Assembly: GCA_035534435.1 (NCBI GenBank)
Contig: DATLRX010000057.1
Location: 515 to 64,514, forward strand
DNA length: 64,000 nt
Direction of reading: 5' to 3'
DNA from: Candidatus Acidiferrales bacterium
Lineage (GTDB): Bacteria; Chloroflexota; Dormibacteria; Aeolococcales; Aeolococcaceae
Part shown: positions 6,068 through 31,613 of the stretch, piece after piece
How positions within the stretch are numbered: position 1 is the first letter of the stretch
Layout of the letters: each line of letters opens with the position of its first letter
Notes under the pieces: generated by a model
Databases searched by the model: none
What the model saw: only the letters and a program-made list of their open reading frames with translations
Told to the model about the DNA's origin: nothing
Program-made: the position numbers and the translations under genes

Positions 6068-8746
6068 CTACCTGGGGTTGGCGTTGATCGGCCCGAGCAC
6101 GTCGGCGCCGGTGATCGGCAGCACGAACCCCGCTCCGTGGCGTTCGCGCTTTCGCGGCGCGTCCGACTCGACGAGCGCGCGCTCGAGCACCTCGCCGACG
6201 TACTCCACCGGCACCACGTCGATCGCGTCGAGGATCTCCCTGTCCACCTCGTACAGGTCACGCATGTTCTTCGCGGGAAGAATGAACGTCTTCAATCCGG
6301 AACGGTGTGCGGCGAGCAGCTTGTCCTTGACGCCCCCGATGGGCAACACCTTGCCACGCAACGTGATCTCGCCCGTCATGGCGAGGTCGCGGCGGACGCG
6401 GCGGCCCGTCGCAACCGACACCATCGCGGTCGCCATGGTCACGCCCGCTGAGGGGCCATCCTTCGGGATGGCGCCGGCGGGGACGTGCACGTGGACGGCG
6501 TGCGTGTCAAAGAAGTCGCGCGGCGCGCCGTACTCGATCGCGTGGACTTTCGCCCACGACAGCGCGGCCTTCACCGACTCCTCCATGACGCTTCCGAGCT
6601 GTCCCGTGAGGACGAGATCGGGCTTGGTCTCGATGGCCAGCGCCTCGACGGTGATGATGTCGCCACCGACCTCGCTGACGACGACCCCGGTGACGGCGCC
6701 GATCTCGTCCTGTTCCTGCGCCTCACCGTAGTCGTGACGGCGCGGGCCGAGGAGATCGGTGAGGTCGTCAGGCGTGATCACGATCGGTGGCGTCGCGCCG
6801 GCGGCGAGCTTTCTCGGGACCTTGCGCGCGACCTCGGCGATGGTTCGATCGAGCTGGCGAACACCCGCCTCGCGCGTGTACCCGTGGAGCATCGCGACGA
6901 TGCTCTCGCGCGGGATCTCGAGCTCGCCGGCATCCAGCGAGTGCTGATCGAGCTGGCGCGGCACCAGGTGACGCTCCGCGATCTCGACCTTCTCCTGCTC
7001 GGTGTAGCCGGTGATCCGGATGATCTCCATCCTGTCGCGCAGCGGGGCGCTGATCGTCTCCGTGATGTTCGCCGTCGTGATGAACAGCACCTGCGAGAGG
7101 TCATACGGCACCTCGAGGTAGTGGTCGCTGAACTCCCAGTTCTGCTCAGGGTCGAGGACCTCGAGCAGCGCCGCGGAGGGATCGCCGCGGAAGTCGGCTC
7201 CGACCTTGTCGATCTCATCGAGCATGATCACCGCATTCCGCGTGCCCGCGGTCCGCATCGACTGGATGATCCGCCCGGGCAGTGCACCGATATACGTGCG
7301 CCGGTGCCCGCGAATCTCGGCCTCATCACGGATGCCGCCCAGCGACATGCGCACGAACTTGCGATCAAGCGCGCGCGCAATGGACCGTCCAAGCGAAGTC
7401 TTTCCGACACCGGGAGGTCCGACGAAACACAGGATGGGCGTCTGCAGAGTCCTTCGCTTCGCCTGCGCGAGTGCGGCGGGTCCTGTCGTCGCGGGGACCC
7501 CTCGCCGCTCTCCAGCCGGGTCTGACCCGTCCTGCGCTTCAGGAACGTCCTGCGGCTCGCCCGGCCTGCGATCGGCGCTGCCCCCCGCGCCGCCACCCGC
7601 CTCTTGCGTCGAGTCTTCGGTGGCGCCTGCCCCCGCGTCGACAGGACCCGCGCCCTCCGACAGGGCCTTAAGCCGAATGCGATCCCGAACGGCCAACCAT
7701 TCCAGGATCCGGTCCTTCACCTTGGTCAGCCCGTAGTGGTCTTCGTCGAGAATCGCGGACGCGCGTTCGATGTCCAGGGTCTCGGCGGGCGGGTCGACCC
7801 ACGGAAGATCCAGCAGCCAGTCGACCCAGGTGCGGACCATTCCCATCTCCGGCGACGCGCTCGGGATCTGTTCGAGGCGGTGCACCTCTTTGAGGACACG
7901 CGTCTTGACGTTCTCCGGCATACCGGCCTTCTCGACCCTGGTGGCGAGATCCTCGTCATCCTCACCCGCGTCGTCGAGCTCCGTCAGCTCCTTGCGGATC
8001 GCGCGCAACTGCTCGCGAAGGATGTGCTCGCGCTGCGAGTTGTTGATCGTCTTCTGAACGTCCTCGTGGATCTTCGTGCGCAACTGCGCAACCTCGACCT
8101 CGCGCGCGAGCAGCGGGATGAGGGTTCGCAGGCGGGCGATCGGATCGGTCTGCTGCAACAGCGCTACCCGGTCGTCGAAGTCGAAATCGGGACAGGTGCT
8201 GGCGATGTCGGCGATCAGCTCCGGGTCTCCGGCACGCGCCATCGCGACAGCGGTGTCAGCACCGACCTGCGCGCCGGCGTTGACGTAGTCGGCGAAGAGC
8301 GATCGCACCGACCCGAAGAGCGCGTCAACCTCGGTGCCTTCAGTGATGTCTGCGGTGACCGGCGTGACCGTGGCAATCCACGCGTCGCCGGTTGCGTCGA
8401 AGGCATCGATGCGCACGCGCTCCTTCCCCTCGACGAGCGCATGAGCTCCCCCACCGGGAAGGCGCCGGAACGCGCCGACATGGGCGATGACCGCGATCGT
8501 GTGCACATCGTCGAGCGACGCCTCGTCGCGAGCGGCGTCGCGCTGGATCGCGAGGACGACGCGACCGTCGCCGTTCACGGCGGCCTCCAGCGCCGCGACC
8601 GAGCGCGGACGCCCTGCTGCCAGCGGCGCGAGCTGAGACGGGAACACGACGTTGTCCCGCAGCGGCACCGCGGGGAGGGTCATGGATGCCGGCGGCGGGG
8701 GTCCGGCAGCCGGCTCGTCGGGCGCGGAGAGCTCAGCTTCGGGCAT
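6068..8746 (-). CDS. lon: ATP-dependent Lon protease (endopeptidase La)
   Basis: ORF 6068..8818(-). N-terminal LON domain, Walker A GPPGVGKTS, Walker B VIMLDEIDK, protease site PKDGPSAGVTMATA. Start set at ATG 8746 (MPEAEL). Carries an unusual insertion before the Walker A (see findings). Confidence 0.93.
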   Translation of the reverse strand: MPEAELSAPDEPAAGPPPPASMTLPAVPLRDNVVFPSQLAPLAAGRPRSVAALEAAVNGDGRVVLAIQRDAARDEASLDDVHTIAVIAHVGAFRRLPGGGAHALVEGKERVRIDAFDATGDAWIATVTPVTADITEGTEVDALFGSVRSLFADYVNAGAQVGADTAVAMARAGDPELIADIASTCPDFDFDDRVALLQQTDPIARLRTLIPLLAREVEVAQLRTKIHEDVQKTINNSQREHILREQLRAIRKELTELDDAGEDDEDLATRVEKAGMPENVKTRVLKEVHRLEQIPSASPEMGMVRTWVDWLLDLPWVDPPAETLDIERASAILDEDHYGLTKVKDRILEWLAVRDRIRLKALSEGAGPVDAGAGATEDSTQEAGGGAGGSADRRPGEPQDVPEAQDGSDPAGERRGVPATTGPAALAQAKRRTLQTPILCFVGPPGVGKTSLGRSIARALDRKFVRMSLGGIRDEAEIRGHRRTYIGALPGRIIQSMRTAGTRNAVIMLDEIDKVGADFRGDPSAALLEVLDPEQNWEFSDHYLEVPYDLSQVLFITTANITETISAPLRDRMEIIRITGYTEQEKVEIAERHLVPRQLDQHSLDAGELEIPRESIVAMLHGYTREAGVRQLDRTIAEVARKVPRKLAAGATPPIVITPDDLTDLLGPRRHDYGEAQEQDEIGAVTGVVVSEVGGDIITVEALAIETKPDLVLTGQLGSVMEESVKAALSWAKVHAIEYGAPRDFFDTHAVHVHVPAGAIPKDGPSAGVTMATAMVSVATGRRVRRDLAMTGEITLRGKVLPIGGVKDKLLAAHRSGLKTFILPAKNMRDLYEVDREILDAIDVVPVEYVGEVLERALVESDAPRKRERHGAGFVLPITGADVLGPINANPR

Positions 8747-20166: not shown

Positions 20167-21015
20167 TCAGGCGCCGGCGGGAGTGGCGGCGAGATGCTCC
20201 AGGACGACGTCGGCAACGTCGTCCCAATGCTGCTCCGGAATCCAGTGGGAGCCGCCCTCCAGCTCGAGGAGGTGATACGCGTCCGTGCAGTGCTCCGCCG
20301 TCAGCTCGACCGCCTCGCGCGTGAACACCGGGTCGTGGTCGCCCCAGATGTACAGCACGGGGACGTCGACCGGCTTGGCATGCGCCGGCTCGGTGCCGAG
20401 CGCCCGGTACCAGTTGAGCGCGCCGGTCGGTCCCACGGCGCGCAGTGCCGCGACGTCCTGATGGGCATGGGCTTTGCTCAAGCCCGTCGCCATGAGCAAC
20501 GACTCGGCGGTGACTCCGCCACCCGCTTCAAAGAGCGATTCGGCGACACGTGGGAGCCGGAGGATGGGGATGTACGCCATCTGCACGCGTTGACGGGCAC
20601 CGCGAAGCGCCTCCCGCAGTGCGGCGGTGTGCGGGGTTGAGACCGCACAGAGAGACGCGACGGTGTCGGGATGGTCGCCGGCGAGCGCCCATGCAACGGT
20701 GCCGCCCCAGTCGTGGCCGATGACATGGAAGCGCTGCGCACCGAGCGTCGATGCCATCGCAAGCACGTCGTCGCAGAGCTCGCTGACGCGGTATGCATCG
20801 ACGCCCACCGGAGACGCGCCCGCCGAATAGCCGCGCTGGCTGGGTGCGACGGCGCGATATCCCGCGTCCCCAAGCGTCGCGAGGGCATCGCGCCAGCAGG
20901 ACGCGTTCTGCGGGAAGCCGTGGAGGAGCAGAACGAGCTCGCCCGTGGCAGGCCCGGCAGTGAGCGCGTCGAAGTGCATCCCGTTCGCCGCGATGGTCGT
21001 GTGCCTCACAGACAC
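20167..21015 (-). CDS. alpha/beta hydrolase (epoxide hydrolase/haloalkane dehalogenase-like)
   Basis: 282 aa. LLLHGFPQN and nucleophile elbow GHDWGG. Confidence 0.8.
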   Translation of the reverse strand: MSVRHTTIAANGMHFDALTAGPATGELVLLLHGFPQNASCWRDALATLGDAGYRAVAPSQRGYSAGASPVGVDAYRVSELCDDVLAMASTLGAQRFHVIGHDWGGTVAWALAGDHPDTVASLCAVSTPHTAALREALRGARQRVQMAYIPILRLPRVAESLFEAGGGVTAESLLMATGLSKAHAHQDVAALRAVGPTGALNWYRALGTEPAHAKPVDVPVLYIWGDHDPVFTREAVELTAEHCTDAYHLLELEGGSHWIPEQHWDDVADVVLEHLAATPAGA

Positions 21016-21084
21016 TGTGATGCCAGCGTATCAGGCAGCCGTCGCGCGATACCCGCGACGCGCGTGTTCCTGCACCATGCGCGA

Positions 21085-21873
21085 GTGGCCGATGCGCTGT
21101 TCACGCCCGACGCCGGACGGTTCGTACCGAGCGAGCACACCCGCGGACCCTGGGATCCCGCCGCCATGCACGGAGGCGCGCCTGCGGCGCTGATCGGTGG
21201 CGTGATGGAGGCGATGCCGTCCGATGTACCGATGTCCATCGTGCGCACCACGGTCGACATCTTCCGACCGGTGCCACTGCGTCCACTGACCGTCTCCGCG
21301 CGTATCGAGCGCAATGGCCGTCGCGTGCAACTGCTCAGCGCAACGTTGATGGACGGCGACGTCGAAGTCTGTCGCGCTTCGGCGTGGCGCATGCGTGTCA
21401 CCGACCTCGACCTGGGGGCGCCGGAGCACGGTCCTCTCCCGTTTGCAGGACCGCACCAGTCGACTCCGCATGTCCCGGAGTCCGACGAGCCCGCGTTTCA
21501 CCGCACCGGCATCGAAATGCGATATGCGGAAGGCGCGTTCCTCGAACCAGGCAACGCGATCGCGTGGTTGCGACTCACGATGCCGGTGATCGCCGGCGAA
21601 TCACCGACACCGTTGCAGCGTGCGCTTGCAGCCGCGGACTTCGGCAACGGTGTCAGCGCGGTGCTGCCGTGGGATCAGTTCGTGTTCATCAACACCGATC
21701 TGACCGTGTACCTCCATCGCGACCCCGAGGGTGAGTGGGTCTGCCTCGATGCGGGCACGGAAGTCGATGCACGCGGCATCGGCCTCGCGCACAGTCGCCT
21801 GTACGACGAGCGCGGGCCCGTGGGCCGCTCATTGCAAGGGCTGTACGTCGACCGGCGACCGGCCGGTACCTGA
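21085..21873 (+). CDS. thioesterase-family (double hotdog, acyl-CoA thioesterase-like) protein
   Basis: GTG 21085 in ORF 20671..21873(+). GPWDPAAMHGGAPAAL near the N-terminus and ...DLTVYLHRDPEGEWVCL near the C-terminus resemble the TesB-like thioesterase family. Confidence 0.6.
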   Translation: MADALFTPDAGRFVPSEHTRGPWDPAAMHGGAPAALIGGVMEAMPSDVPMSIVRTTVDIFRPVPLRPLTVSARIERNGRRVQLLSATLMDGDVEVCRASAWRMRVTDLDLGAPEHGPLPFAGPHQSTPHVPESDEPAFHRTGIEMRYAEGAFLEPGNAIAWLRLTMPVIAGESPTPLQRALAAADFGNGVSAVLPWDQFVFINTDLTVYLHRDPEGEWVCLDAGTEVDARGIGLAHSRLYDERGPVGRSLQGLYVDRRPAGT

Positions 21874-21884
21874 CGCGCCTGACT

Positions 21885-22601
21885 TCAGCCGCCGACGAGG
21901 CTCTGGACCCGGGGATCCTCCCGGATGGGAGCGAGATCCGGATCGTTCCTCGCCCAGGCACGGAGGTCCGGCTGACTGTGGAGCGCGCTCCCCAGCAGCG
22001 GCAGCGCCTCCTCCACCCGTGCATTGCGAGCGTAGAAACACGCGAGGTTGAAATCGGCGACGGCCCTGTCCTCGGGGTCGGGAAAGAGCTCGGTCTCGAG
22101 CGTGTATGCCCACAGCGCTGTCGCCTCCGCGCCGGCCGGATCACCGTGTTCCCCCAACCACGACGACACGTGCTGCGCCACGTGCGCATGACCGTTGCCG
22201 GGCACGAGGCGCCAGACCGCGCCACCGGTGGGGCGCTCGCGGCGCAGCTCGTCGTCGGTGCACGCGGCGACGGCCTTCTTGAGCGCAGCGTATGTGGCGG
22301 CAGAGGCGGCGCGAACCGCTTCTGAGGTGTCATGCCGGTGAGCCTCGTAGATCTCGGCGTTGCGGCCATCGAGCTCGCTGTCGTCGAACGGCCCTTCCAG
22401 CGGCGCGCCGACGCGCATCGAGTCGAGCGTGTGCGCTGCATGCTCCCGCCATGTGTTCAGATGCGCGATGTTGTCCTTCGCCGTCCAGCGCCCCGCCTCG
22501 GCAGCCGGTGAGTCATCACACAGCGCGATGAGCACCTCCTCGCGCTCCTGCGCAGCATCCAGTGTCTGCTGGAGACGATCCCGCAGGCTCGCTTCCGTCA
22601 T
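21885..22601 (-). CDS. DinB-fold (ClbS/DfsB- or DinB_2-like) domain fused to a C-terminal TPR-like helical domain
   Basis: ATG 22601 in ORF 21885..22733(-). WTAKDNIAHLNTWREHAAH and GNGHAHVAQH give the His pattern of DinB-type four-helix bundles. The C-terminus ADFNLACFYARNARVEEALPLLGSALHSQPDLRAWARNDPDLAPIRE is TPR-like. The ATG overlaps the helicase stop (ATGA). Confidence 0.55.
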   Translation of the reverse strand: MTEASLRDRLQQTLDAAQEREEVLIALCDDSPAAEAGRWTAKDNIAHLNTWREHAAHTLDSMRVGAPLEGPFDDSELDGRNAEIYEAHRHDTSEAVRAASAATYAALKKAVAACTDDELRRERPTGGAVWRLVPGNGHAHVAQHVSSWLGEHGDPAGAEATALWAYTLETELFPDPEDRAVADFNLACFYARNARVEEALPLLGSALHSQPDLRAWARNDPDLAPIREDPRVQSLVGG

Positions 22602-25600
22602 GCGCTCAGCATAGCGAGGGCCGGGGATGCCGCGCCCCACGGGGCGGCCATCTCCACGTATCGGCACAACGCGTTCACCAGCCGCATCTGTTCGGGCGTG
22701 TGACAGCGCGCGCGAAGAAGCTCCGGCGAGCACACGAGAATCGACACGGCCCGCGCGCGGGATACCGCCACGTTGAGTCGGTTCAGGCTGAAGAGGAACT
22801 CCAGGTTGCGCGGGAGATCCTCGACACTCGACGTCGCCATCGAGAAGATGCTCACCGCTGCCTCCTGACCCTGAAAGCGATCCACGGTGCCGACCCTGGC
22901 GCCCTGTGGGAGCGCCTCCACGAGGCAGGCAACATGCGCGTTGTACGGCGCCACAACCACGATGTCATCGAGCGTCAGCGGTCGCTCCTCGTCGCTGTCC
23001 GAACGCCAGGTTCCGCGCGTCAACTGTTCGATGATCTCGCGGACGTGCCGCGCTTCGTCATCGGAGCGGATTCGATCCCCGGCGTGCTCGACGAACGCGT
23101 GGCGGAGTCCCGTCATCGCCACGCCGTCCTCGAGCACCGCCTGGCGCGCGCACTGCGGTTCGGAACCGAGACGGCTTTCGTAGAAGGAGCGCGAGATGAA
23201 CGCGCTGACGTCAGGATGCATGCGCCATGTGAGGTCGAGCAGCACGCCACGATCGGGCGCGATGGTGACGTCACCGCCGAGGAGATGGTCGAGGGCCGAC
23301 ACGCCGACTCCCGGGGGATGACTGCCCTGCAGCGGCTGGGCAAGCTGGCGCGGATCGCCCACAAGCACGAGGTTGCGCGCGGCGCGCGAGACCCCCAGAG
23401 CGTCGGACAGGGACAGCTGGCCGGCCTCGTCGATGACGAGTGTGTCGAACATCCCTTCGAGTTCCGGCCGGGAGAACAGCCACGACGTGCCGCCGACGAT
23501 GTCGACTGCGTCCTCAGACAGTGCGCGCTCAACGTCGCCGGGGGAACGTGCCATCCGGATCGCGTCAGTTCCCGCTGTCGACGAACGCTGATGGATCATC
23601 CGCGGCATCGGGCCGAACCTCGGTGCGAGCTCCTCGATCTTGCCCAACAGCGTCCGGATCGCGCTGTGCGAGAGGGCTGTGATCCCGATCGGGCCACGTC
23701 CGTGGTCGAGCAGCGCGAGAATCGCTTCCGCCGCGGTATGGGTCTTGCCGGCTCCCGGTGGTCCCTGGATCGGGAGGCATCCGGCATTGAGGTCGAGGAT
23801 CAGGCGAGTTGCGGTTTGTGACGCCGTCTCGCCCGCGATCCGGAGCTCACCGTGAGGATCGGTGCACCGTCGCGGTGGGAGGCGCATGAGCAGATCACGA
23901 CCGGCACGCCGCGCGCCCGGCGCATCGACACCGTGCGCGACCACCCAGCGCGCCAGATCGAGCAGTGATTCCTCCTGCGCATCGGTCTGAATCGGCGTCG
24001 TCGGTATGAGAAAACGTGGCGACCCCCATGCCATCTGTGCCGGCGTGCGCGACAGCGTGATCTCTCCTCGAGCCGAGTCGAGCTCCGTCACTTCGCCCGC
24101 GGTCACCGCCCATCCTCGGTCGTTGCGCACGTGCGGATTCAGCGGCTTGTCGTCCTTGCCGATCCGGTGCTCCTGTGGCTCGAACCGGTAGCGCTCGATG
24201 ACACGTGAGCCCTCCTCGCGCGAACCGATCTGCACCAGCGGCCCCAGGGCGTACGTGTCGTTCTCGAGCTCCTCGGCCGTCATCGCGATCTGGTCGAAGT
24301 GACGCCACCAGCCGACCTTGCTCTCGCGCCGGTGATACGAGAGCACCGGGGCAAGCAACCATCGCGCCTGTTCCACGGCGATCCGTTCCTCCGGCGCGCC
24401 GGGGACTCCGGCGACGAGCGCCGCGGCAACGTCCTGCGTGGCACCGACCTTGTCGTGGACTGCGTCGGGAACACCACGCTCAACAGGTTCGGGTCGCTCA
24501 ACGGGGGCGCCACGAAGCGCCTCCTCCTCGGCACGTCGCGCCTCGAGCCAGTCGCGCAACAGCGCCGTCGATGCGCAGTCGCGCGCGTTGTACAGCGCGA
24601 TCTCGTCGAGCAGGAACGAGTCGCCGTCACTCCCGTCCTCGCGGCTGATCAACCAGCGCTCGTACATCACCATGCTGCCCGCGGCATCGGCGATCGACTC
24701 CTCGCGCGCCGGCATGTAGAGGCGTTCCACCTTCTTGAGCGAGTACGAGTCGGTCGACAACCGGATTCCCTGGCGCACGACGCGATAGAGGTCGACGAGC
24801 ACCTCGTTGCGCAGCAGGCGGTCCACCTCCTCCTCGCGAGTGCCGTGCCGGCTCATGAGCCGGCGCAGCGCGGTCTTCTCATACGCGGCGTAGTGGTAGA
24901 TGTGCATGTCGGGATACCGGTCGAGCTGCGCGATCGCGAAGTCGACGAAGTCCTCGAAGGCGCTCTTCTCCCCTGCCTCGTCGTGTCCCCACCACGGGTG
25001 GTACGTGCCCAGTATGTCGACGGCGCCGAACAGGTACTCGAGCGGGACGTCGCGCGCCAGGCCGTCGCCCTCCATGTCGAAGAACAGATCCCCGGGGGAT
25101 GGCGTGGGGAGCGCGCAGAGACCGTGCCCGACCTCCCACGCGTCGAGCAACTCGTAGCGCGGCGTGCCGTCGGCCTCGGGCCCCCTGTGCTGCAACGCGG
25201 CCTGCGCGCGAAGGGAGCGGAAGGTGTCGGCCTGCATGCGCGCCGGGGGCTCCGCGTCGGCGTCCGTCAGCGCGAGCGCCGTCATCGTGTCGATGCCCGC
25301 CGACTGCAACACCAGCACCTGACCCGAGCGCATCCGCGCGACCTCGGAGAGATGATCGTCCTGCCTCCGCTGCGCGGCGCATCGCTTCGCATAGCCGCAC
25401 GTGCCGCAGTGCGCAACCGGATCGGGATACGTGTCATCGAGTCCGGCGAGCATCGCCACGTCGAAATCGCGCTTCACCGACGCGTGGTACGCGGAGAACT
25501 CGTCGACGCGGTACGGATGCTCCGTGCCGTCGCCGAGGATCACCTGCATCAGTTGCGGCGCCGTGCCCTGCAGGCGCTGCAGGTGCGCGGAGTACTCGCA

Positions 25601-26068
25601 GAGCTGGAGCAGCGCCTCGGACCGCACTCTGCGCGCCAGCTTCGCGTCGGCAGCCTCGTACGAGAACGCGCCGAGGTTACTCGGGCGGTCGACACGCAGT
25701 AGGAAATCCGCCCGGCCGAGCCAGCGACCGTCGAAGAACGTCGGCTGGTAAATGACGTCATATCCGTCGCGCATCGCGGAAAGCGTCTCCGCCTCGAGCG
25801 CCTCGAGCTCGGCGGCGGTGCTCGCATGGCGGTCCTGGCCGTCCTCGAATGCCTTGATGCGCAGATTCCGCGCGGACAGCGTCTCGAGGTGGTGCCGCTC
25901 GTGCCCGGCGCCGAGGTTCGCAAGCACCTCGCTCAGTGCGGAGGGATCGCGTTCGATCTGCTCGCCGGCAGCCACACGCCGCTTCAGCGAGACGAGATGG
26001 CCACATGCCAGGTAGTCGCAGAGGTCGGTGGCCGTGTACACCGGACGGCCGTCGGCGAGGAAGCGCAT
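22598..26068 (-). CDS. fusion protein: Cas4/RecB-like 4-Cys PD-(D/E)XK nuclease + RNase-H-fold (DEDD-like) exonuclease (TM0106/TIGR03491-like) + SF1B Upf1/Dna2-like helicase
   Basis: ATG 26068 (MRFLADGRPVYTATDL) in ORF 22598..26440(-), 1156 aa. Nuclease: CDYLAC, GRADFL, YEAADAKL, QLCEY, HCGTCGYAKRC. Exonuclease-like: LFFDMEGD, HIYHYAAYEKTAL. Helicase: GPPGAGKTH, VIDEAGQ, VGDPRQL, TVDRFQGQE, VAVSRAR. Confidence 0.85.
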   Translation of the reverse strand: MRFLADGRPVYTATDLCDYLACGHLVSLKRRVAAGEQIERDPSALSEVLANLGAGHERHHLETLSARNLRIKAFEDGQDRHASTAAELEALEAETLSAMRDGYDVIYQPTFFDGRWLGRADFLLRVDRPSNLGAFSYEAADAKLARRVRSEALLQLCEYSAHLQRLQGTAPQLMQVILGDGTEHPYRVDEFSAYHASVKRDFDVAMLAGLDDTYPDPVAHCGTCGYAKRCAAQRRQDDHLSEVARMRSGQVLVLQSAGIDTMTALALTDADAEPPARMQADTFRSLRAQAALQHRGPEADGTPRYELLDAWEVGHGLCALPTPSPGDLFFDMEGDGLARDVPLEYLFGAVDILGTYHPWWGHDEAGEKSAFEDFVDFAIAQLDRYPDMHIYHYAAYEKTALRRLMSRHGTREEEVDRLLRNEVLVDLYRVVRQGIRLSTDSYSLKKVERLYMPAREESIADAAGSMVMYERWLISREDGSDGDSFLLDEIALYNARDCASTALLRDWLEARRAEEEALRGAPVERPEPVERGVPDAVHDKVGATQDVAAALVAGVPGAPEERIAVEQARWLLAPVLSYHRRESKVGWWRHFDQIAMTAEELENDTYALGPLVQIGSREEGSRVIERYRFEPQEHRIGKDDKPLNPHVRNDRGWAVTAGEVTELDSARGEITLSRTPAQMAWGSPRFLIPTTPIQTDAQEESLLDLARWVVAHGVDAPGARRAGRDLLMRLPPRRCTDPHGELRIAGETASQTATRLILDLNAGCLPIQGPPGAGKTHTAAEAILALLDHGRGPIGITALSHSAIRTLLGKIEELAPRFGPMPRMIHQRSSTAGTDAIRMARSPGDVERALSEDAVDIVGGTSWLFSRPELEGMFDTLVIDEAGQLSLSDALGVSRAARNLVLVGDPRQLAQPLQGSHPPGVGVSALDHLLGGDVTIAPDRGVLLDLTWRMHPDVSAFISRSFYESRLGSEPQCARQAVLEDGVAMTGLRHAFVEHAGDRIRSDDEARHVREIIEQLTRGTWRSDSDEERPLTLDDIVVVAPYNAHVACLVEALPQGARVGTVDRFQGQEAAVSIFSMATSSVEDLPRNLEFLFSLNRLNVAVSRARAVSILVCSPELLRARCHTPEQMRLVNALCRYVEMAAPWGAASPALAMLSA

Positions 26069-26328
26069 CAGCGAAGCATCCTCGCTCGGCGGCGGCCGCG
26101 CTCGCGCGCGATCGGAAGGCTGAGCTGCCGGCCGCCCGTGCGGCGCGTGCGGTCCGCCCTGTCCGGCGTCGACGGGACCAACGCCGGGGCGCTCTCCAGC
26201 GAGAGCGTTCGCGACATCGCGAACAGCTCGGCCCGGCGAGCCATCAGTGCCTGGGCGCGGGCAAGGTACTGCCCGTCGCGGTCGGCCATGCCGCGGTCCT
26301 GCGCAACGTTCGTGGGATCCATGGCCAC
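26068..26328 (-). CDS. possible small protein (73-86 aa), translationally coupled to the nuclease-helicase
   Basis: ORF 26068..26328(-). Third codon positions are almost all G/C when read by hand, which looks like coding. The stop TGA (26070-26068) shares a base with the helicase ATG (TGATG). Start could be GTG 26328, ATG 26322 or the later ATG of MADRDGQ. Helical N-part and Arg-rich tail; no family recognised. Confidence 0.45.
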   Translation of the reverse strand: MAMDPTNVAQDRGMADRDGQYLARAQALMARRAELFAMSRTLSLESAPALVPSTPDRADRTRRTGGRQLSLPIARERGRRRARMLR

Positions 26329-26369
26329 AGCGTGGCGGGGGGCCGCGACAGGAGCCTGTCGCGTAGGGT
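26329..26369. promoter_or_regulatory. divergent promoter region with a perfect 9-2-9 palindrome (operator candidate)
   Basis: CGCGACAGG-AG-CCTGTCGCG at 26344-26363. On the plus strand TAGGGT (26364-26369) lies 6 nt before the GNAT GTG 26376. On the minus strand TGTCGCGG-N8-CACGCT (26350-26329) lies just before the small-ORF start. Confidence 0.5.
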
Positions 26370-26375
26370 GACCGG

Positions 26376-26903
26376 GTGCCAGACGACGTCGAGATCCGGC
26401 CGATTCGCGCCTCCGAGTACACCGCCGCCGGCGAGGCCACCGCTCGCGCCTATCGGGAGTTCTGGCAGCCCGACTCGCCGGGCTGGGACGCGTACATCGC
26501 CAGGATCGCCGACGTCGGCAGCCGGGCCGGCATCGCAGTCGTGCTCGTCGCGCTCGACGCCGGCCTCGTCGCCGGCTCGGCGACTCTCGAGCTCGATGCT
26601 CGGATCCGTCCCGGACCGGCCGACCCGCTCGCGCCTGACGAAGCGCACCTGCGCATGGTCGGCATCAGCCCCGACCATCGCGGAAAGGGCATCGGTCGCC
26701 GGCTCGTGGTCGCGTGCATCGACCTGGCACGCGAGCGCGGGCGCCGGGTGATGACGCTCGACACCGACGAGGTGATGGTCGCGGCGCAACGGCTGTACAC
26801 GTCGCTCGGATTCGTGCCGACGGGTCCGACGCGGCGTCCGGGTGGGCCCGAGTTGCTCGGCTTCCGTCTCGATATCCCCGCACAGTCCGGGACGACACGC
26901 TAG
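26376..26903 (+). CDS. GNAT-family N-acetyltransferase
   Basis: 175 aa, GTG start. ISPDHRGKGIGRRLV (acetyl-CoA binding R/Q-x-x-G-x-G/A) and AQRLYTSLGF. Confidence 0.85.
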   Translation: MPDDVEIRPIRASEYTAAGEATARAYREFWQPDSPGWDAYIARIADVGSRAGIAVVLVALDAGLVAGSATLELDARIRPGPADPLAPDEAHLRMVGISPDHRGKGIGRRLVVACIDLARERGRRVMTLDTDEVMVAAQRLYTSLGFVPTGPTRRPGGPELLGFRLDIPAQSGTTR

Positions 26904-26912
26904 GCTCGTCGC

Positions 26913-27911
26913 GTGCCAGGCGTGTACGAGAAGGGAGAGAAGGAACACCGAGTCATCAGGTTGTTCGTGCGTCTCTCCGAGACCGAGATGGGTCTCACGT
27001 CGCGACAGCTCGCGGACGAGCTGGAGGTGAACACGAGGACCGTCCAGCGGTACATCGCGACGCTTCGTGACAACGCCGGCATCGACATCGAGGAGACAGG
27101 CGGGCGCTGGCGCATCGGCCGGCGCAGCAGGCTTCCGGCACTGCAGCTCGACCACTACCAGGCAACGATGCTGCTGGTCGCGGTGCGGCTCCTGCAGCAG
27201 CTTCGACCGGAGCAGGACCCGGCGCTCGTCGGCGCGCTCGCACACCTCTCGCGGGCGCTGGCCGTGCCGCTGGTGAGCGAGTACCTGCGCAGGACGCTTG
27301 CGGCCGCCGAGCGCCGCAAGCCCGCGGCGGAGCATCTCGGCGTCGAGCGGGCGGTCATCGACGGCTTCGTGCTGCATCGAGAGATCGAGGTCCGCTACGT
27401 CGACGCCAAGGGCAACGAGACGAAACGCGACCTGCGCCCGTATTTCATCGAGCCCGCCGCCGAGAGCCGGCACATCTACGTCTTCGCCCGCGACTCCGCG
27501 TCGCGGGAGGTGCGCTCCTTCCGCCTCGACCGCATCCGCACGGCTCGCCTGCTGCCGACGACGTTCACGGTGCCGGACGACTTCGACATCGACGACGCCC
27601 TCGGCGCCGCGTGGTCCATCTGGCAGGGTGCGGGCGGCGATCGCGTCGTCCTCCGCTTCCCGGAAACCGCGCGTCAGTGGGTCGACGAGACGCCGTGGCC
27701 CGCGCGCGCGCAGCGCTCCAACCTCGGCGGCGGCGGGATCGAGGTGCGCCTGGACGTCGCCAGCGAGGTCGAGATGCGCCCGTGGCTCCTTCGGTGGGGC
27801 TCCAACGTCGAGGTGCTGGAGCCGCCGTCGCTGCGCGCGCACATGGCCGAGACGCTTGCGGCCGCGGCGGGGTTGTACGCGTCGAATCCTCGGAAAGGGG
27901 GTAGAACCTAG
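26913..27911 (+). CDS. HTH-WYL-WCX transcriptional regulator (WYL domain protein)
   Basis: 332 aa. HTH LTSRQLADELEVNTRTVQRYIATL. WYL-type core IEVRYVDAKGNETKRDLRPYFIEPAAESRHIYVFARDSASREVRSFRLDRI. C-terminal extension ...MRPWLLRWGSNVEVLEPPSLR. Confidence 0.85.
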   Translation: MPGVYEKGEKEHRVIRLFVRLSETEMGLTSRQLADELEVNTRTVQRYIATLRDNAGIDIEETGGRWRIGRRSRLPALQLDHYQATMLLVAVRLLQQLRPEQDPALVGALAHLSRALAVPLVSEYLRRTLAAAERRKPAAEHLGVERAVIDGFVLHREIEVRYVDAKGNETKRDLRPYFIEPAAESRHIYVFARDSASREVRSFRLDRIRTARLLPTTFTVPDDFDIDDALGAAWSIWQGAGGDRVVLRFPETARQWVDETPWPARAQRSNLGGGGIEVRLDVASEVEMRPWLLRWGSNVEVLEPPSLRAHMAETLAAAAGLYASNPRKGGRT

Positions 27912-27916
27912 AGACG

Positions 27917-28318
27917 ATGGACGAGAAGATCACCCTCACCGACGAAGAGTGGCGTCAACGCCTCACGCCTGAGCAGTACGCAGTGCTCCGCAAGGCGAGC
28001 ACGGAGCGAGCCTTCACCGGCAAGTACGTGCACGTCGATGCCAAGGGCGTGTACCGGTGCGCAGGATGCGGGGCGGAGCTCTTCAGCTCCCACACGAAGT
28101 TCGACTCCGGCACGGGCTGGCCGAGCTTCTACGAGGCGATCAACCCCGACGCGGTCGAGGAGCATCGCGACTGGAGCATGCTCATCCCCCGCACGGAGAT
28201 CCGCTGCGCAAAGTGCGGCGGCCACCTCGGTCACGTCTTCCCCGACGGACCGGCGCCCACAGGACAGCGCTACTGCATGAACTCCTGCGCGCTGTCCCTC
28301 GACAAGAAGAAGGACTGA
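27917..28318 (+). CDS. msrB: peptide-methionine (R)-S-oxide reductase
   Basis: 133 aa. CAGCGAELF, GTGWPSF, IRCAKCGGHLGHVF, GQRYCMNS (catalytic Cys). The TGA stop at 28316-28318 is in the same frame as recQ. Confidence 0.93.
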   Translation: MDEKITLTDEEWRQRLTPEQYAVLRKASTERAFTGKYVHVDAKGVYRCAGCGAELFSSHTKFDSGTGWPSFYEAINPDAVEEHRDWSMLIPRTEIRCAKCGGHLGHVFPDGPAPTGQRYCMNSCALSLDKKKD

Positions 28319-30361
28319 CCCCCGATCGAGCCCTCGGCGCGGGCTCGCGCGGTACTCGAGCAGACCTTCGGCTTCGCGGACTTCCGTCCGGGACAGGCAG
28401 ACGTCATCGCCGCAGCCGAGGCCCGTGCTGACGTTCTCTTCGTAGCGCCGACCGGCTCCGGGAAGAGCATCGGGTACTGGATCCCGGGCATCGTCAACGG
28501 CGGCCTCACCATCGTGATCTCGCCGCTCATCGCGCTCATGGTCGATCAGGTCGCGCGGCTCAACGAGCTCGGCATCCCCGCCGCATGTCTGCACAGCCAG
28601 GTCAGCGCGTCGGCGCGCGCCGAGTCGATGCGCGCCGCCGCCGCGGGCGAGCTGCGCTTCCTGTACCTCGCACCCGAGCGCATTGGCGCTCCCGGGTTCC
28701 TCGAGGGCCTGAGCCGTCTCGCGGTGGAACGGTTCGTCGTCGACGAGGCGCACTGCATCTCGAGCTGGGGCCACGATTTCCGCCCCGAGTACCGCCGTCT
28801 TGGCGAGGCCATCGCGGCCTGCGATCGCCCGCCGGTCGGCGCGTTCACGGCCACCGCCACGCCGCGCGTCCGTGAGGACATCGCGACGAGTCTCGGCCTG
28901 CGGTCGCCGGTCGAGCGCGTCACCGGATTCGTGCGCGACAACCTGACGATGTCCGTCATCCGCTGCCGGGGCGTCGCCGACAAGCGCGACGCGGTGCTGC
29001 GCCTCGTCCGTCCCGGCGCTGGTCGCGCCCTCATCTACTGCGGGAGCCGGCGCACGACGGACGCGATCACCGACGTGCTGGCCGGCGCCGGAGTTTCCGT
29101 TGCCTCGTATCACGGTGCGCTCGACGGCGACGCGCGCCAGAGCGTGCACGAGGGGTTCGCGGCGGGTCGCCTGCAGGCGATCGTCGCCACGTCCGCGTTC
29201 GGCATGGGCGTCGACTTCCCGGACATCCGCCGTGTCATCCATCACGACTTCCCCGGCAGCCTCGAGGAGTACTACCAGCAGGCGGGACGCGCGGGACGCG
29301 ACGGCGAGCCGTCCGAGTGCACCCTCCTGTACAACGCGGCCGACCGTCAGCTGCAGGAGTTCTTCATCGAGCAGGCGTACCCCGAGCGCGATGCGGTTCG
29401 CGCTGTCTACCGCGAGCTCCTCCGCGAAGGGACCGACTCCATCGACGACTGGGAGGCACGTGGAGTCAGCACCAACCAGGCACGTGCCGCGCTCGAGCTG
29501 TTGCGCCGCGCCGACGTCATCCAGCCCGACGGCGGCATCCGGCGCTTGACGGCGGCGCCCGTGGACTTCGATGAGCAGGCGCTGCTGAAGGCCAACGCCT
29601 ATGCGCGCGTGACACAGGTCATGGACTACGCGATCTCGCGCAGCTGCCGCCATGCGCGCATCGCCGACTACTTCGGCGAGCAGGGCGTGGCGAGGACCTG
29701 CCGCGCCTGCGACAACTGTCTCGACCCGGACGGCGGCGCCGTCGTGGCCGTGGATGCCGACGACGTCGACGCCGCACTCGCGTGCATCGCGCGGTTCGAC
29801 AACCATCTCGGCGGCGTGCGTATCGCCTCCATCCTTCGCGGTGCGACCGATGCGTGGACGGCGTCACGAGCCTGGGTCACGGAGTTGCCGTTCTTCGGAG
29901 CGTTGCGCACCTGGGACGTCGAGCGCATCCGAGACCTGCTCGAGCGGCTCGTCGAGCTGGACTGCGCGACGCGTGGCCACGGCGAGAAGCCGACGCTCGG
30001 CATCACGCAGCGCGGGCGCGACGTCCTCGGTGGAGCAGCGTCTGTCGATGTCGACGTTCGCGCGACCCGGACGCGGTCACCGGCTCGAGGTCGCAAGCAG
30101 TCCGCGGGCAGTCCGGTCGAGGAGCTCACTTCTGAGGTCGGCGCGCGATTCGAGGCGTTGCGGCGCTGGAGGCTCGAGGTGGCGCGCGGCTCCGAGGTGC
30201 CGCCGTACGTCGTCTTCCACGACAAGACACTGGTCGAGATCGCGCGTCGCAATCCGACGTCGGCCGCATCCCTGGTGCTGATCGCCGGCGTGGGGCCGGC
30301 CAAGCTCGCCCGCTATGGCCAGTCGCTGCTCGCCGCACTCCACACTGGGGCCGAGAGCTAG
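28319..30361 (+). CDS. recQ: ATP-dependent DNA helicase RecQ (start codon unresolved)
   Basis: The ORF track starts at GTG 28514. Motif 0 (LEQTFGFADFRPGQ) and Walker A (APTGSGKS) lie upstream at about 28355-28468 in the same frame. VVDEAHCISSWGHDFRPEY, the Zn-binding CRHARIADYF...CRACDNC and the HRDC (YVVFHDKTLVEIA...IAGVGPAKLARYG) are all present. Confidence 0.85.
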   Translation, partial: PPIEPSARARAVLEQTFGFADFRPGQADVIAAAEARADVLFVAPTGSGKSIGYWIPGIVNGGLTIVISPLIALMVDQVARLNELGIPAACLHSQVSASARAESMRAAAAGELRFLYLAPERIGAPGFLEGLSRLAVERFVVDEAHCISSWGHDFRPEYRRLGEAIAACDRPPVGAFTATATPRVREDIATSLGLRSPVERVTGFVRDNLTMSVIRCRGVADKRDAVLRLVRPGAGRALIYCGSRRTTDAITDVLAGAGVSVASYHGALDGDARQSVHEGFAAGRLQAIVATSAFGMGVDFPDIRRVIHHDFPGSLEEYYQQAGRAGRDGEPSECTLLYNAADRQLQEFFIEQAYPERDAVRAVYRELLREGTDSIDDWEARGVSTNQARAALELLRRADVIQPDGGIRRLTAAPVDFDEQALLKANAYARVTQVMDYAISRSCRHARIADYFGEQGVARTCRACDNCLDPDGGAVVAVDADDVDAALACIARFDNHLGGVRIASILRGATDAWTASRAWVTELPFFGALRTWDVERIRDLLERLVELDCATRGHGEKPTLGITQRGRDVLGGAASVDVDVRATRTRSPARGRKQSAGSPVEELTSEVGARFEALRRWRLEVARGSEVPPYVVFHDKTLVEIARRNPTSAASLVLIAGVGPAKLARYGQSLLAALHTGAES

Positions 30362-30429
30362 AGGCTGCCGGCGGCCGGGGGATTGGCGTCACCATAGCGT
30401 CGAAGGAATACCGGGAGGCGGGTACGCGG

Positions 30430-31074
30430 ATGGGCATGTCGGAGCGTCCAAGGCGGCTTGCGGCCGCGGCCTCGCTGGCGGGCTTCGTCGTCGCCTTTGG
30501 GATTGTCTCCTGGTATGTCACCGGGGGAACCGGCCCTCACGCGACGCCCTCACCGGAGGGTTCTCTGTTGACCGGCACACCGGGACCGATACCGATATCG
30601 CTGGACTGCGCGGCCAATGAACTGGAACTCACTGGAGCGTTCGGTGAATGCGTCACGCCCGTCGACAGTCCGTTCGGCACGTGTTCGGTAGCCGGCCACA
30701 TCCTCGAGGCAGCGGTCCTTCTCGGACACGGCAGCCCCGACGAGTGGTTCTACATCGAAATCAACGGCGCGTTCGATGGTGCCGGCACCTACGACCTGGG
30801 ACCGTGGCCTCATCCGCTTGGCACGAAGAACGATCCACCGAAGATCGCACTCGAACAGGACGGGTCGAGCGAATCGCTGCAACGTGTCAACGGCGTCCCA
30901 ATCGAGCAGTACGGCACGGACAACCTCTGGCAGTCGGTTGCCGGGAGCGTCACCGTCACGGGCAGCAACGGACGGTCGGGCACCGTCTCGGCCATCCTCG
31001 AAATGTCAGCCGGCCACAACGCAACCGCGCCGGGTACCACGCTCACGGTGTCTGGAACGTGGCGCTGTCCATGA
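30430..31074 (+). CDS. hypothetical membrane-anchored/secreted protein
   Basis: 214 aa. N-terminal TM/signal (LAAAASLAGFVVAFGIVSWYV), then a Gly/Thr/Ser-rich, probably beta-rich domain with 4 Cys. No family recognised. Confidence 0.55.
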   Translation: MGMSERPRRLAAAASLAGFVVAFGIVSWYVTGGTGPHATPSPEGSLLTGTPGPIPISLDCAANELELTGAFGECVTPVDSPFGTCSVAGHILEAAVLLGHGSPDEWFYIEINGAFDGAGTYDLGPWPHPLGTKNDPPKIALEQDGSSESLQRVNGVPIEQYGTDNLWQSVAGSVTVTGSNGRSGTVSAILEMSAGHNATAPGTTLTVSGTWRCP

Positions 31075-31100: not shown

Positions 31101-31580
31101 CTACGCCGGAATGTTGCAGGTGGCCGCGATGCCGCGGCGCGAGAAGTACTTCTGGTGGTACTCCTCCGCATCCCAGAACTTTCCGGCCGGGACGATCTCG
31201 GTGACGATCGGTCGGCGGTAGCGGCCTGAGGCCTCGAGCGCGGCCTTCGACGCCAGGGCGGCGGCTTCCTGCTCCGGGGAGTGAGAGAAGATCACCGACC
31301 GGTAGTTGTCGCCGATGTCCGGACCTTGGCGGTTCAGCTGAGTCGGATCGTGGTTCATCCAGAAGATGTCGAGCAGGTTCTCGTAGCTGACCTTTGTGGG
31401 GTCGTACGTGACCTCGACCGCTTCGGCATGGCCCGTGCGATGCGAGCACACGGCCTCATAGCTCGGCGCTTCCGTGAAGCCGCCCGTGTAGCCGACCTTG
31501 GTCGAGACGACCCCGTCGACCTGCTCGAATACTGATTCCACGCCCCAGAAGCACCCTGCGCCGAATGTCGCTGTTTCCAT
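31101..31580 (-). CDS. msrA: peptide-methionine (S)-S-oxide reductase
   Basis: ATG 31580 in ORF 31101..31613(-). [10 protein letters not shown] active site, GYTGG, GHAEAV, YHQKY. Confidence 0.93.
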
Positions 31581-31613
31581 GGTCCGAGTATGCCTCGATG
31601 GTGCCTCAGCCAA

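Follow-up and report, generated by a model that had tools for sequence, protein, structure and literature searches.

The locus described here lies at positions 21,885 to 27,911 of a 64,000-nucleotide stretch of contig DATLRX010000057.1 from an uncultured soil bacterium of the Dormibacterota (the whole stretch is called the window), where a minus-strand operon of three open reading frames (ORFs), encoding a small protein, a large nuclease-helicase and a DinB-fold protein, faces a plus-strand operon opened by a GNAT acetyltransferase and a transcriptional regulator of the WYL type. We lean towards reading it as a DNA-damage unit of the DriD/SiwR kind, in which the regulator would sense single-stranded DNA (ssDNA) and drive a bidirectional pair of leaderless promoters. 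The unit would probably be independent of LexA and the SOS response, belong to the class Dormibacteria, and serve the oxidative-stress response too. Across related loci, the constant core is the WYL regulator, a palindromic operator and the small ORF, and the helicase, the DinB-fold gene, the GNAT gene and RecQ are interchangeable or optional cargo. The initial annotation of this stretch, which had proposed a DNA-damage or anti-phage module, missed what appears from the sequences to be the invariant target, namely the small ORF with its canonical motif of the beta-clamp-binding type.

Both junctions of the minus-strand operon are ATGA overlaps, so the chain of start and stop codons described earlier is present. 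The stop of the small ORF (26068..26322 if read from an ATG, 26068..26328 from a GTG) overlaps the ATG of the nuclease-helicase gene (22598..26068, 1156 residues), whose stop in turn overlaps the ATG of the third gene, encoding a DinB-fold protein with tetratricopeptide repeats (DinB-TPR; 21885..22601, 238 residues). In a window with a G+C content of about 69%, the G+C content at third codon positions (GC3) is 0.89, 0.84 and 0.81 in the proposed frames of the small ORF, the large ORF and the DinB-TPR gene, and it falls to 0.68 and 0.59 in the stretches that mechanical extension adds upstream of the two larger ORFs, which indicates that the proposed starts are the coding ones. A 1280-residue helicase reading from GTG 26440 was ruled out, its extension having a GC3 of 0.68 against 0.89 for the small-ORF frame. 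On the plus strand, the genes for GNAT (26376..26903, 175 residues, GTG start), the regulator (26913..27911, 332 residues), the methionine-R-sulfoxide reductase MsrB (SelR; 27917..28318) and the RecQ helicase (28325..30361) follow each other with gaps of 9, 5 and about 6 nt. RecQ had been placed immediately downstream of the regulator; in fact MsrB, which begins 5 nt past the WYL stop, intervenes. Also, the best homologues carry the names Candidatus Dormibacterota or Dormibacteraeota, and the Actinomycetota lineage supposed at first has to be abandoned.

The operator, the small ORF and the regulator

The region between the divergent operons holds the perfect 9-2-9 palindrome recognized in the initial annotation, at 26344..26363 (CGCGACAGG-AG-CCTGTCGCG), with the core GCGACA-N6-TGTCGC, that is, CGAC-N8-GTCG. 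A loose match to this palindrome is expected by chance in the window alone; nevertheless, about 50 related loci keep it, and its distance to the small ORF is constant. Among the loci of WYL orthologues (58-99% identity), 53 have at least 1.2 kb of sequence upstream of the WYL gene, and the operator is found in 50 of these 53, as is a small-ORF homologue (50 of 53). Operator and small-ORF ATG are separated by 22 nt in 33 of the distinct sequences and by 23 nt in another 8, and alignment of about 50 intergenic regions gives a hexamer consensus, CA-[T/C]-[C/G]-[G/A]-T, the layout on this side being fixed as an 18-bp operator, 10 variable nt, the hexamer, 6 nt and the ATG. In the window, the hexamer is CACGCT (26329..26334, minus strand), a putative -10 element 10 nt past the operator and 6 nt before the ATG. 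The fixed spacing suggests a leaderless transcript from ATG 26322, which would put the operator at about -40 to -23.

On the GNAT side, the -10-like hexamer TAGGGT (TA-N3-T; 26364..26369, plus strand) abuts the operator 6 nt before the GNAT GTG, in a position conserved as TACGGT, TAGGGT or TATCGT, which points to a leaderless GNAT-WYL-MsrB-RecQ transcript. Both transcripts appear to be leaderless on this layout, and the palindrome is likely to be an operator. A scan of positions 21700-30500 with the sigma-70 consensus gave no promoter-like site; this null result fits activator-dependent promoters that lack a -35 element, yet it is no evidence for them.

The small ORF starts most likely, judging from its sequence, at ATG 26322, which gives 84 residues, and gene callers call an 84-residue hypothetical protein in relatives. 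The divergent gap of 47 nt reported at first stands if GTG 26328 is the start, and with the likelier ATG the start codons of the small ORF and GNAT are 53 nt apart. The encoded protein runs from an acidic N-terminus through a helix and a variable Arg/Pro-rich linker to the hexapeptide QLSLPI and a basic tail. Homologues share the N-terminal helix, G-x-Y-x-x-R-A-x-A-L-x-A-x-R-x-E-L-F, and 45 of the 46 distinct ones carry Q-[LM]-x-L-[PA]-[LI] (QLTLPL in 12, QLSLPL in 8, QLALPL in 8, QLRLPL in 6, QLSLPI in 3 including that of the window, and a few others). In the window, QLSLPI is encoded at 26110..26127 (minus strand; residues 66-71) and is a putative beta-sliding-clamp-binding motif of the hexapeptide type QLxLxL; a peptide for this candidate motif would be GGRQLSLPIARE. 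The codons of the conserved Leu, Pro and Gln vary synonymously, position 3 is free, and the background of the motif is 3 per 128,000 six-frame residues of the window; this codon variation together with the rarity of the motif argues that selection acts on the peptide.

In Escherichia coli, Hda binds the clamp tightly through the motif QLSLPL, the general consensus being QL[S/D]LF or QxxLF (PMC12309361). The small protein resembles Hda and other clamp-motif proteins in carrying QL[STARK]LP[LI], often exactly QLSLPL, in a disordered basic region near the C-terminus, and it shows the sequence signature of beta-clamp-binding proteins (QL[S/D]LF or QLxLxL in a region predicted to be accessible); it differs from them in its length of 84 residues without any other recognizable domain. 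From the motif, binding to the clamp may be expected. The family has no match in Pfam, NCBIfam or PADLOC, and its distribution is narrow: about 12 credible clusters (74-104 residues) were found among 1.84 billion representatives, and the 16 word-index matches are all close relatives (the one that is named being Dormibacteraeota). Outside Dormibacterota, no overlapping upstream ORF with the motif is present at the helicase loci searched, alphaproteobacterial plasmid pairs included, and a literature search found no described small clamp-motif protein under WYL control.

The regulator has the domain architecture of DriD, with HTH_11 at residues 17-65, WYL at 150-212 and WCX at 244-319, that is, a winged helix-turn-helix (wHTH)-WYL-WCX protein of the DriD/SiwR/PafBC type; DriD and PafC are its closest solved relatives. 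Profile searches thus bear out the earlier identification of GNAT and HTH-WYL-WCX proteins, and of the DinB-fold/TPR protein (DUF1706, 25.7 bits; DinB_2, 22.2 bits, just under the cut-off; TPR_END_plus, 58.3 bits). When the published contacts of DriD are transferred through a HMMER alignment, six of its seven ssDNA-contacting residues are matched, Y168, R178, R189, Y192, R204 and R207 corresponding to Y162, R172, R186, Y189, R201 and R204, and the seventh, S172, is K166 here and is not conserved. For base reading, R37, E40 and R41 of DriD correspond to R42, Q45 and R46. All these counterparts except K166 are invariant or nearly so in 15 orthologues. The DNA-damage reading is supported by this retention of the ssDNA-contact and DNA-reading residues. 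Moreover, the DriD box, ATACGAC-N7-GTCGTAT, is a palindrome with CGxC half-sites (PMC10853764), and DriD boxes lie where the absent -35 element would be, with constant spacing to the -10 (PMC13004042); from the sequence, the same geometry of operator and -10 would apply here.

The likeness to the DriD regulon of Caulobacter crescentus includes the wHTH/WYL/WCX layout, the conserved ssDNA-contact and base-reading residues and a CGxC-half-site palindrome, here over the presumed -35 position, and would extend to an autoregulatory site near the start codon of the regulator's operon, a small protein as principal target and repair genes in the regulon. However, DidA, the small target of DriD, is a membrane-bound division inhibitor, whereas the proposed one of the window is soluble with a clamp-type motif; also, the half-sites here are spaced by 8 with a GC-rich center, the promoters look leaderless and the phylum is Dormibacterota.

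A second candidate relative, judged by description, is SiwR of Mycobacterium smegmatis (MSMEG_1359), a homodimeric WYL activator divergent from an operon with a DinB-superfamily (DinB_2/DUF664) gene, whose palindrome lies between -35 and -10 and which H2O2 and zeocin activate via ssDNA binding (PMC10693628). Both systems have a homologous domain layout with near-identical domain coordinates, a divergent arrangement over about 60 bp and a palindrome within it, which here would lie in the core promoter; a DinB-superfamily gene is near in both, here in a neighborhood that is presumably controlled, and the link of SiwR to oxidative and genotoxic stress is matched here by the MsrB gene in the operon. 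Unlike in the SiwR system, the DinB-fold gene of the window is third or displaced, the first genes encoding the clamp-motif protein and the nuclease-helicase; 17 of 22 related loci have it in the divergent operon and others have a DinB_2/MDMPI_N gene in the vicinity, and it is not the first gene.

The gene structure, the domains, the conserved operator, spacing and motif, and the residue correspondence with DriD are established, and from them we infer regulator-operator binding, ssDNA sensing, the direction of regulation, leaderless starts, clamp binding and the enzyme activities, as follows. The regulator, presumably a homodimer, would bind GCGACA-N6-TGTCGC within a bidirectional promoter region of about 50 bp, where on the small-ORF side the operator would take the place of the -35 element, as in DriD-activated promoters, and on the other side would abut the -10 of the GNAT-WYL-MsrB-RecQ operon. 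Upon damage, ssDNA would accumulate and bind to the WYL domain, and the regulator would switch; we consider activation of the small-ORF operon most likely, with autoregulation of the regulator's own operon. The induced 84-residue protein, mostly disordered, would dock on the beta sliding clamp through its C-terminal QLSLPI and could act as a replication brake, a clamp-occupancy factor or a tether. The large protein, induced with it, would combine a Dna2-like iron-sulfur (Fe-S) nuclease, a DEDD-like exonuclease and a 5'-3' helicase of superfamily 1B (SF1B) for processing ssDNA flaps, ends and stalled forks; the DinB-fold/TPR protein, to which no chemistry is assigned, would also be induced; and the other arm would supply MsrB and RecQ together with GNAT and the regulator.

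Within Dormibacterota, relatives of the large protein at 53-97% identity keep the arrangement, and the 53 WYL loci fall into classes according to the gene before the WYL gene, which is GNAT in 41 (type A), a gene for a 224-residue membrane protein in 10 (type B) and neither in 2. The helicase, of the TM0106 family, is present in all 22 type A loci with enough sequence, and DinB-TPR in 17 of the 22. Type B loci are without the TM0106 helicase; an Lhr helicase is nearby in 8 of the 10, one of them (L093) has a Fapy-type glycosylase gene too, and several have a DinB_2/MDMPI_N gene. Their small ORF stands just upstream of Lhr (L094) or is monocistronic (L133, L135, L138, L142). Types A and B alike keep MsrB linked to WYL; RecQ comes after MsrB only in one subclade, that with WYL proteins of at least 74% identity. 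Also, in two loci (L115, positions 35-268; L117, positions 3-816), the small ORF is followed directly by DinB-TPR, the nuclease-helicase being missing from the operon.

The type B configuration recalls mycobacterial lhr-nei2, a DNA-damage operon of the PafBC regulon, in that the regulator, operator and small ORF adjoin Lhr, with a Fapy/Nei-type glycosylase beside Lhr in L093. PafBC is a heterodimer with the non-palindromic RecA-NDp motif, whereas the regulator of the window would be of the homodimer type, being encoded by a single gene, with a palindromic site.

The nuclease-helicase and its family

The large protein matches TIGR03491, the TM0106 family, with 257.5 bits against a cut-off of 97.45, residues 12-508 covering positions 2-462 of the 462 in the model. 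RNase_H_2 (PF13482; 88.6 bits) matches residues 328-508, and the helicase core matches AAA_12 (84.1 bits), AAA_11 (52.2 bits) and AAA_30 (residues 753-1114). This whole-domain match followed by RNase_H_2 and AAA_11/AAA_12 places the protein in the TM0106 family, and NCBI names the homologues likewise. The domain reading of the initial annotation is hence confirmed by profile and fold matches, all the motifs that it quoted being present in the translation.

The N-terminal Fe-S PD-(D/E)XK nuclease domain (25349..26068, minus strand; about residues 1-240) has the sequence signature of an iron-staple nuclease, that is, an N-terminal Cys and a C-x2-C-x5-C flanking RecB motifs, with C22, C221, C224 and C230 as the predicted staple, D121, E138, D141 and K143 as the predicted catalytic residues, and Q155 to Y159. 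It is followed by the RNase_H_2/DEDD-like exonuclease domain (24545..25087, minus strand; residues 328-508), with D331, E333, H392, E397, Y493 and D497, and by the SF1B helicase core (22709..23812, minus strand; residues 753-1120), with GPPGAGKT, DEAGQ, GDPRQL, TVDRFQGQE and VAVSRAR. The four Cys, D121, D141, K143, Q155, Y159 and the six residues of the exonuclease type are invariant in 51 homologues (46-90% identity), as are the helicase motifs, and at least 90% of the sequences keep E138.

An AlphaFold2 model of the full protein (predicted local distance difference test, pLDDT, 89; predicted template modeling score, pTM, 0.85) has Dna2 as the best fold match in the Protein Data Bank (PDB; 5ean, E 2e-27), followed by Upf1, Ighmbp2 and Sen1, and the same four proteins are the PDB sequence matches of the helicase core. 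A separate N-terminal model (pLDDT 93) resembles the Dna2 nuclease and Cas4 with TMt up to 0.65, its second domain giving weaker fold matches to polymerase 3'-5' exonuclease domains, RNase T and Nibbler. With Dna2 and with Bad, a DNA2-like enzyme of Geobacillus, the protein shares an iron-staple RecB-family nuclease at the N-terminus ahead of a C-terminal SF1B helicase in one chain; however, Dna2 lacks the central RNase-H-fold DEDD-like module (PF13482). Bad combines the activities of a 5'-3' helicase and an ssDNA endonuclease and holds an Fe-S cluster, and its central domain was reported as unrecognizable (PMC7430649). By description, Bad is the closest characterized enzyme found, although it may belong to another family. 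The RecQ gene in the divergent operon also recalls the cooperation of Dna2 with RecQ. Literature searches returned nothing relevant on TM0106/TIGR03491 helicase proteins, biochemistry included, and nothing for PF13482/AAA_12 together with defence terms.

A comparison with 80 full-length homologues at 37-47% identity, from Chloroflexota, Acidobacteriota, Actinomycetota, Bacteroidota, Proteobacteria, Eremiobacterota and other phyla, ruled out a widely conserved five-gene module. No DinB-TPR, GNAT or small-ORF neighbor was found at the 80 loci with tblastn and custom hidden Markov models (HMMs), a WYL neighbor is clear in only one (L074; a weak match in L040), and all-against-all clustering of the neighboring ORFs gave no recurrent partner, the commonest family, a DEAD-box/Lhr-like helicase by the look of its sequence and without a Pfam scan, occurring in 7 of the 80. 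Inside Dormibacterota too, GNAT, DinB-TPR and the helicase are replaced or missing at some of the loci.

On the other hand, the functional link between WYL regulators and this nuclease-helicase, also proposed initially, finds support elsewhere. Full-length copies of the large protein are on 59 plasmids, and coordinate comparison places a divergent adjacent WYL gene at no fewer than 13 of the 25 alphaproteobacterial plasmid matches listed, the hosts of these pairs being Sphingobium, Rhizobium, Paracoccus, Haematobacter, Leisingera and Rhodobacter. Also, in a metagenome-assembled genome (MAG) of Steroidobacteraceae, the nuclease-helicase gene is immediately preceded by a WYL gene of the same strand. 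WYL control of TM0106 nuclease-helicases arose in at least three lineages, which supports the regulatory link and leaves a defence role possible for the plasmid versions. The plasmid pairs have a different palindrome, TGTCA-N5/6-TGACA, and no small ORF.

Four of the plasmid WYL-TM0106 intergenic regions (L091, 5850-6000; L175, 5434-5580; L176, 5882-6001; L177, 4968-5209) share the palindrome (A/G)TGTCAGA(G/T)ATTG(A/T)CAC, probably the operator of the plasmid regulators, and an element like CCTGTCGAG. In the Rhizobium daejeonense plasmid among them (L176, 9295-13814), TM0106 is followed in the same direction by genes for an AAA_5 (McrB-like) ATPase and a McrC-family protein, with WYL and TIR genes on its opposite side, and the whole looks like a composite restriction-type cassette. 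Also, a 1290-residue TM0106 helicase with 48% identity (L087, 2780-6652; P0117, Logan SRR33230214) has a GNAT domain fused at its C-terminus (about residues 1193-1270), a 5'-3' exonuclease gene after it and no WYL gene nearby; this single occurrence hints at a functional link of GNAT and helicase, or could be an artefact of assembly or gene calling.

Weighing the alternatives

Several points weigh against a DriD/SiwR-like damage unit. Many of the 53 loci come from close relatives and cannot be counted as independent events; since the clade shares the gene order of the housekeeping flanks as well, much of the synteny may be plain collinearity. DriD is only weakly similar in sequence (about 26 bits, E about 3e-5), the half-site spacing is 8 against 7 in DriD, and the clamp motif is a putative one of only six residues. 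Beyond chance, no second copy of the operator exists in the 64-kb window; with this single copy, no wider regulon is visible or derivable. The position of the operator cannot separate activation from repression, and an operator between -10 and -35, as on the GNAT side, usually means repression. Moreover, in the four examples examined, WYL-linked plasmid copies of the helicase adjoin McrB/McrC-like, SbcCD-like, HEPN, TIR and DUF3883/PDC-S36 genes, and the family may act mainly on foreign DNA. Finally, the organisms are uncultured, and the whole model rests on sequence, conservation and structure prediction.

The last of the plasmid observations bears on an alternative that we consider improbable, an anti-phage or anti-plasmid module in which a WYL repressor of the BrxR/CapW type would free the nuclease-helicase as effector, with the small protein and DinB-TPR, upon ssDNA or damage from infection. 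WYL repressors that sense ssDNA do control defence systems (CapW, PMC11662680; BrxR, PMC9122601), and the likeness lies in a WYL gene divergent from a nuclease-helicase gene, ssDNA as the likely signal and the pairing among defence-type genes on plasmids, to which can be added plasmid copies without a WYL neighbor (L088-L090) beside TmtA-like, SNF2, VapBC and HNH genes, and the Type III-like methyltransferase next to Bad (PMC7430649). However, the window locus is chromosomal and syntenic, in a housekeeping neighborhood conserved across the class and not in a variable island. A PADLOC v2 search, one of the checks first suggested, matched no known system at the locus: the large protein gave only partial matches of its helicase core (MkoA, MkoC, DpdJ, PDC-S37, Hhe), the WYL protein only generic WYL models, and the small ORF, DinB-TPR and GNAT nothing. 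NCBIfam defence equivalogs scored far below their cut-offs, and membership in Nhi, Mokosh, Dpd or Hhe was ruled out, the match being to the generic SF1 core only. No homologue of the large protein occurs in 50,697 phage records. Also, sister lineages have Lhr nearby instead of TM0106, with regulator, operator and small ORF unchanged, the regulator's operon also holds MsrB and RecQ, and the plasmid pairs differ in operator and lack the small ORF. The chromosomal syntenic position, the linkage to Lhr, RecQ and MsrB, and the absence of defence matches and phage homologues favor repair or stress over defence for this locus. Of the two functions proposed initially, DNA damage is supported by the DriD residues that are kept, and the anti-phage one is without direct support at the chromosomal locus.

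Just as improbable, in our estimate, is that the two operons share no regulation, the palindrome serving only the autoregulation of GNAT-WYL or forming a hairpin, and the small-ORF operon being a collinear neighbor. This would agree with relatives that are collinear throughout, including thioesterase, hydrolase, MBL, MFS, MsrA and ABC genes, with an operator that abuts the GNAT -10, and with a helicase that stands alone in the 80 genomes of other phyla. In L093, moreover, two convergent 3' ends flank a similar palindrome, perhaps a terminator hairpin, which was not counted as an operator. Nonetheless, the distance of 22-23 nt from operator to ATG is fixed with a conserved hexamer between, and the operator goes with the small ORF when YceI and MarR genes part it from the WYL operon (L133, L138). 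Where a GT87 glycosyltransferase gene is inserted, on the GNAT strand, between GNAT and operator (L081, 6290-7660), an imperfect copy, GCGACATGCACCTGTCGT, still precedes the small ORF. The core persists while the flanks around it change through loss of RecQ, loss of DinB or insertion of XFP/acetate kinase, and the pairing of WYL with TM0106 evolved independently in Proteobacteria.

Least probable is that the small ORF is a mere leader for translational coupling of the helicase, with QLxLPL fortuitous or a constraint on the nucleotides (e.g., the helicase ribosome-binding site), since, although its stop overlaps the helicase ATG, its last codons hold the helicase Shine-Dalgarno GAGGA, its product is low-complexity and Arg-rich with no database match, and gene callers missed it in several relatives, the Lhr-type small ORF is monocistronic or ends just past the motif and yet keeps helix and motif, in L115 and L117 it precedes DinB-TPR instead of the helicase, the motif, 13 codons ahead of the stop, is clear of the Shine-Dalgarno, its conserved codons vary synonymously, and the GC3 of the ORF is 0.89.

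Flanking genes and meaning of the locus

In the regulator's operon, RecQ (DEAD, Helicase_C, RecQ_Zn_bind, RQC and HRDC domains) has an uncertain start codon. Its frame opens 1 nt past the MsrB stop, and motif 0 (FGFADFRPGQ) and Walker A (APTGSGKS) precede the first in-frame ATG, GTG or TTG, which is GTG 28514 (window positions 28319-28514); this points to a start at a non-canonical codon (e.g., ATC 28325) or to coupling to MsrB. MsrA (31101..31613) and MsrB (27917-28318) are both less than 4 kb from the regulator. This proximity, with the retention of MsrB beside WYL in all configurations, suggests an oxidative-stress component of the unit.

On the other flank, an acyl-CoA thioesterase gene (20671-21873) converges on the DinB-TPR gene with a gap of 11 nt. 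Its mechanical ORF has 400 residues against 234-265 in homologues, and its Pfam domains begin at residue 158; the true start is probably near 21100. In the Lhr-type Dormibacteraeota MAG of L093, about eight GGCGGT hexamer repeats (about 7620-7665) stand just upstream of the YceI gene.

For the sensing of DNA damage, WYL regulators such as PafBC, DriD and SiwR are coming to be seen as the chief alternative to LexA, and others, such as BrxR and CapW, as switches of phage defence. To our knowledge, WYL targets have been identified in few species, all of them cultured, and Dormibacterota are known only from metagenomes. The residues and the similar box reported here extend DriD-type logic to this phylum, and point to a hitherto undescribed class of target, namely a tiny protein whose conserved features are one helix and a clamp-binding motif of the top-affinity type, and nothing else. 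The locus also provides a first regulatory context for the widespread and unstudied TM0106 nuclease-exonuclease-helicase family, which is found with WYL regulators of the ssDNA-sensing type in three independent lineages, and on plasmids sits also with McrBC-type, HEPN and TIR genes. The locus would be a variant of the WYL-controlled damage response in which the small protein is possibly one new component, and it looks more like a repair unit, SOS-independent and so far undescribed, than like a system of phage defence.

A further-reaching proposal, which we advance only tentatively, is that disordered proteins of about 80 residues with an Hda-grade motif form a new kind of damage-inducible clamp binder that works with interchangeable helicases (TM0106 or Lhr) and, in this genome, with RecQ, the plasmid WYL-TM0106 pairs being an unrecognized defence or DNA-processing cassette. 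If this is true, the small protein would be a replication brake, or would pass the clamps left at stalled forks to repair helicases. The locus would then be the bacterial equivalent of the Dna2-RecQ pair that performs resection in eukaryotes, placed under the control of ssDNA sensing.

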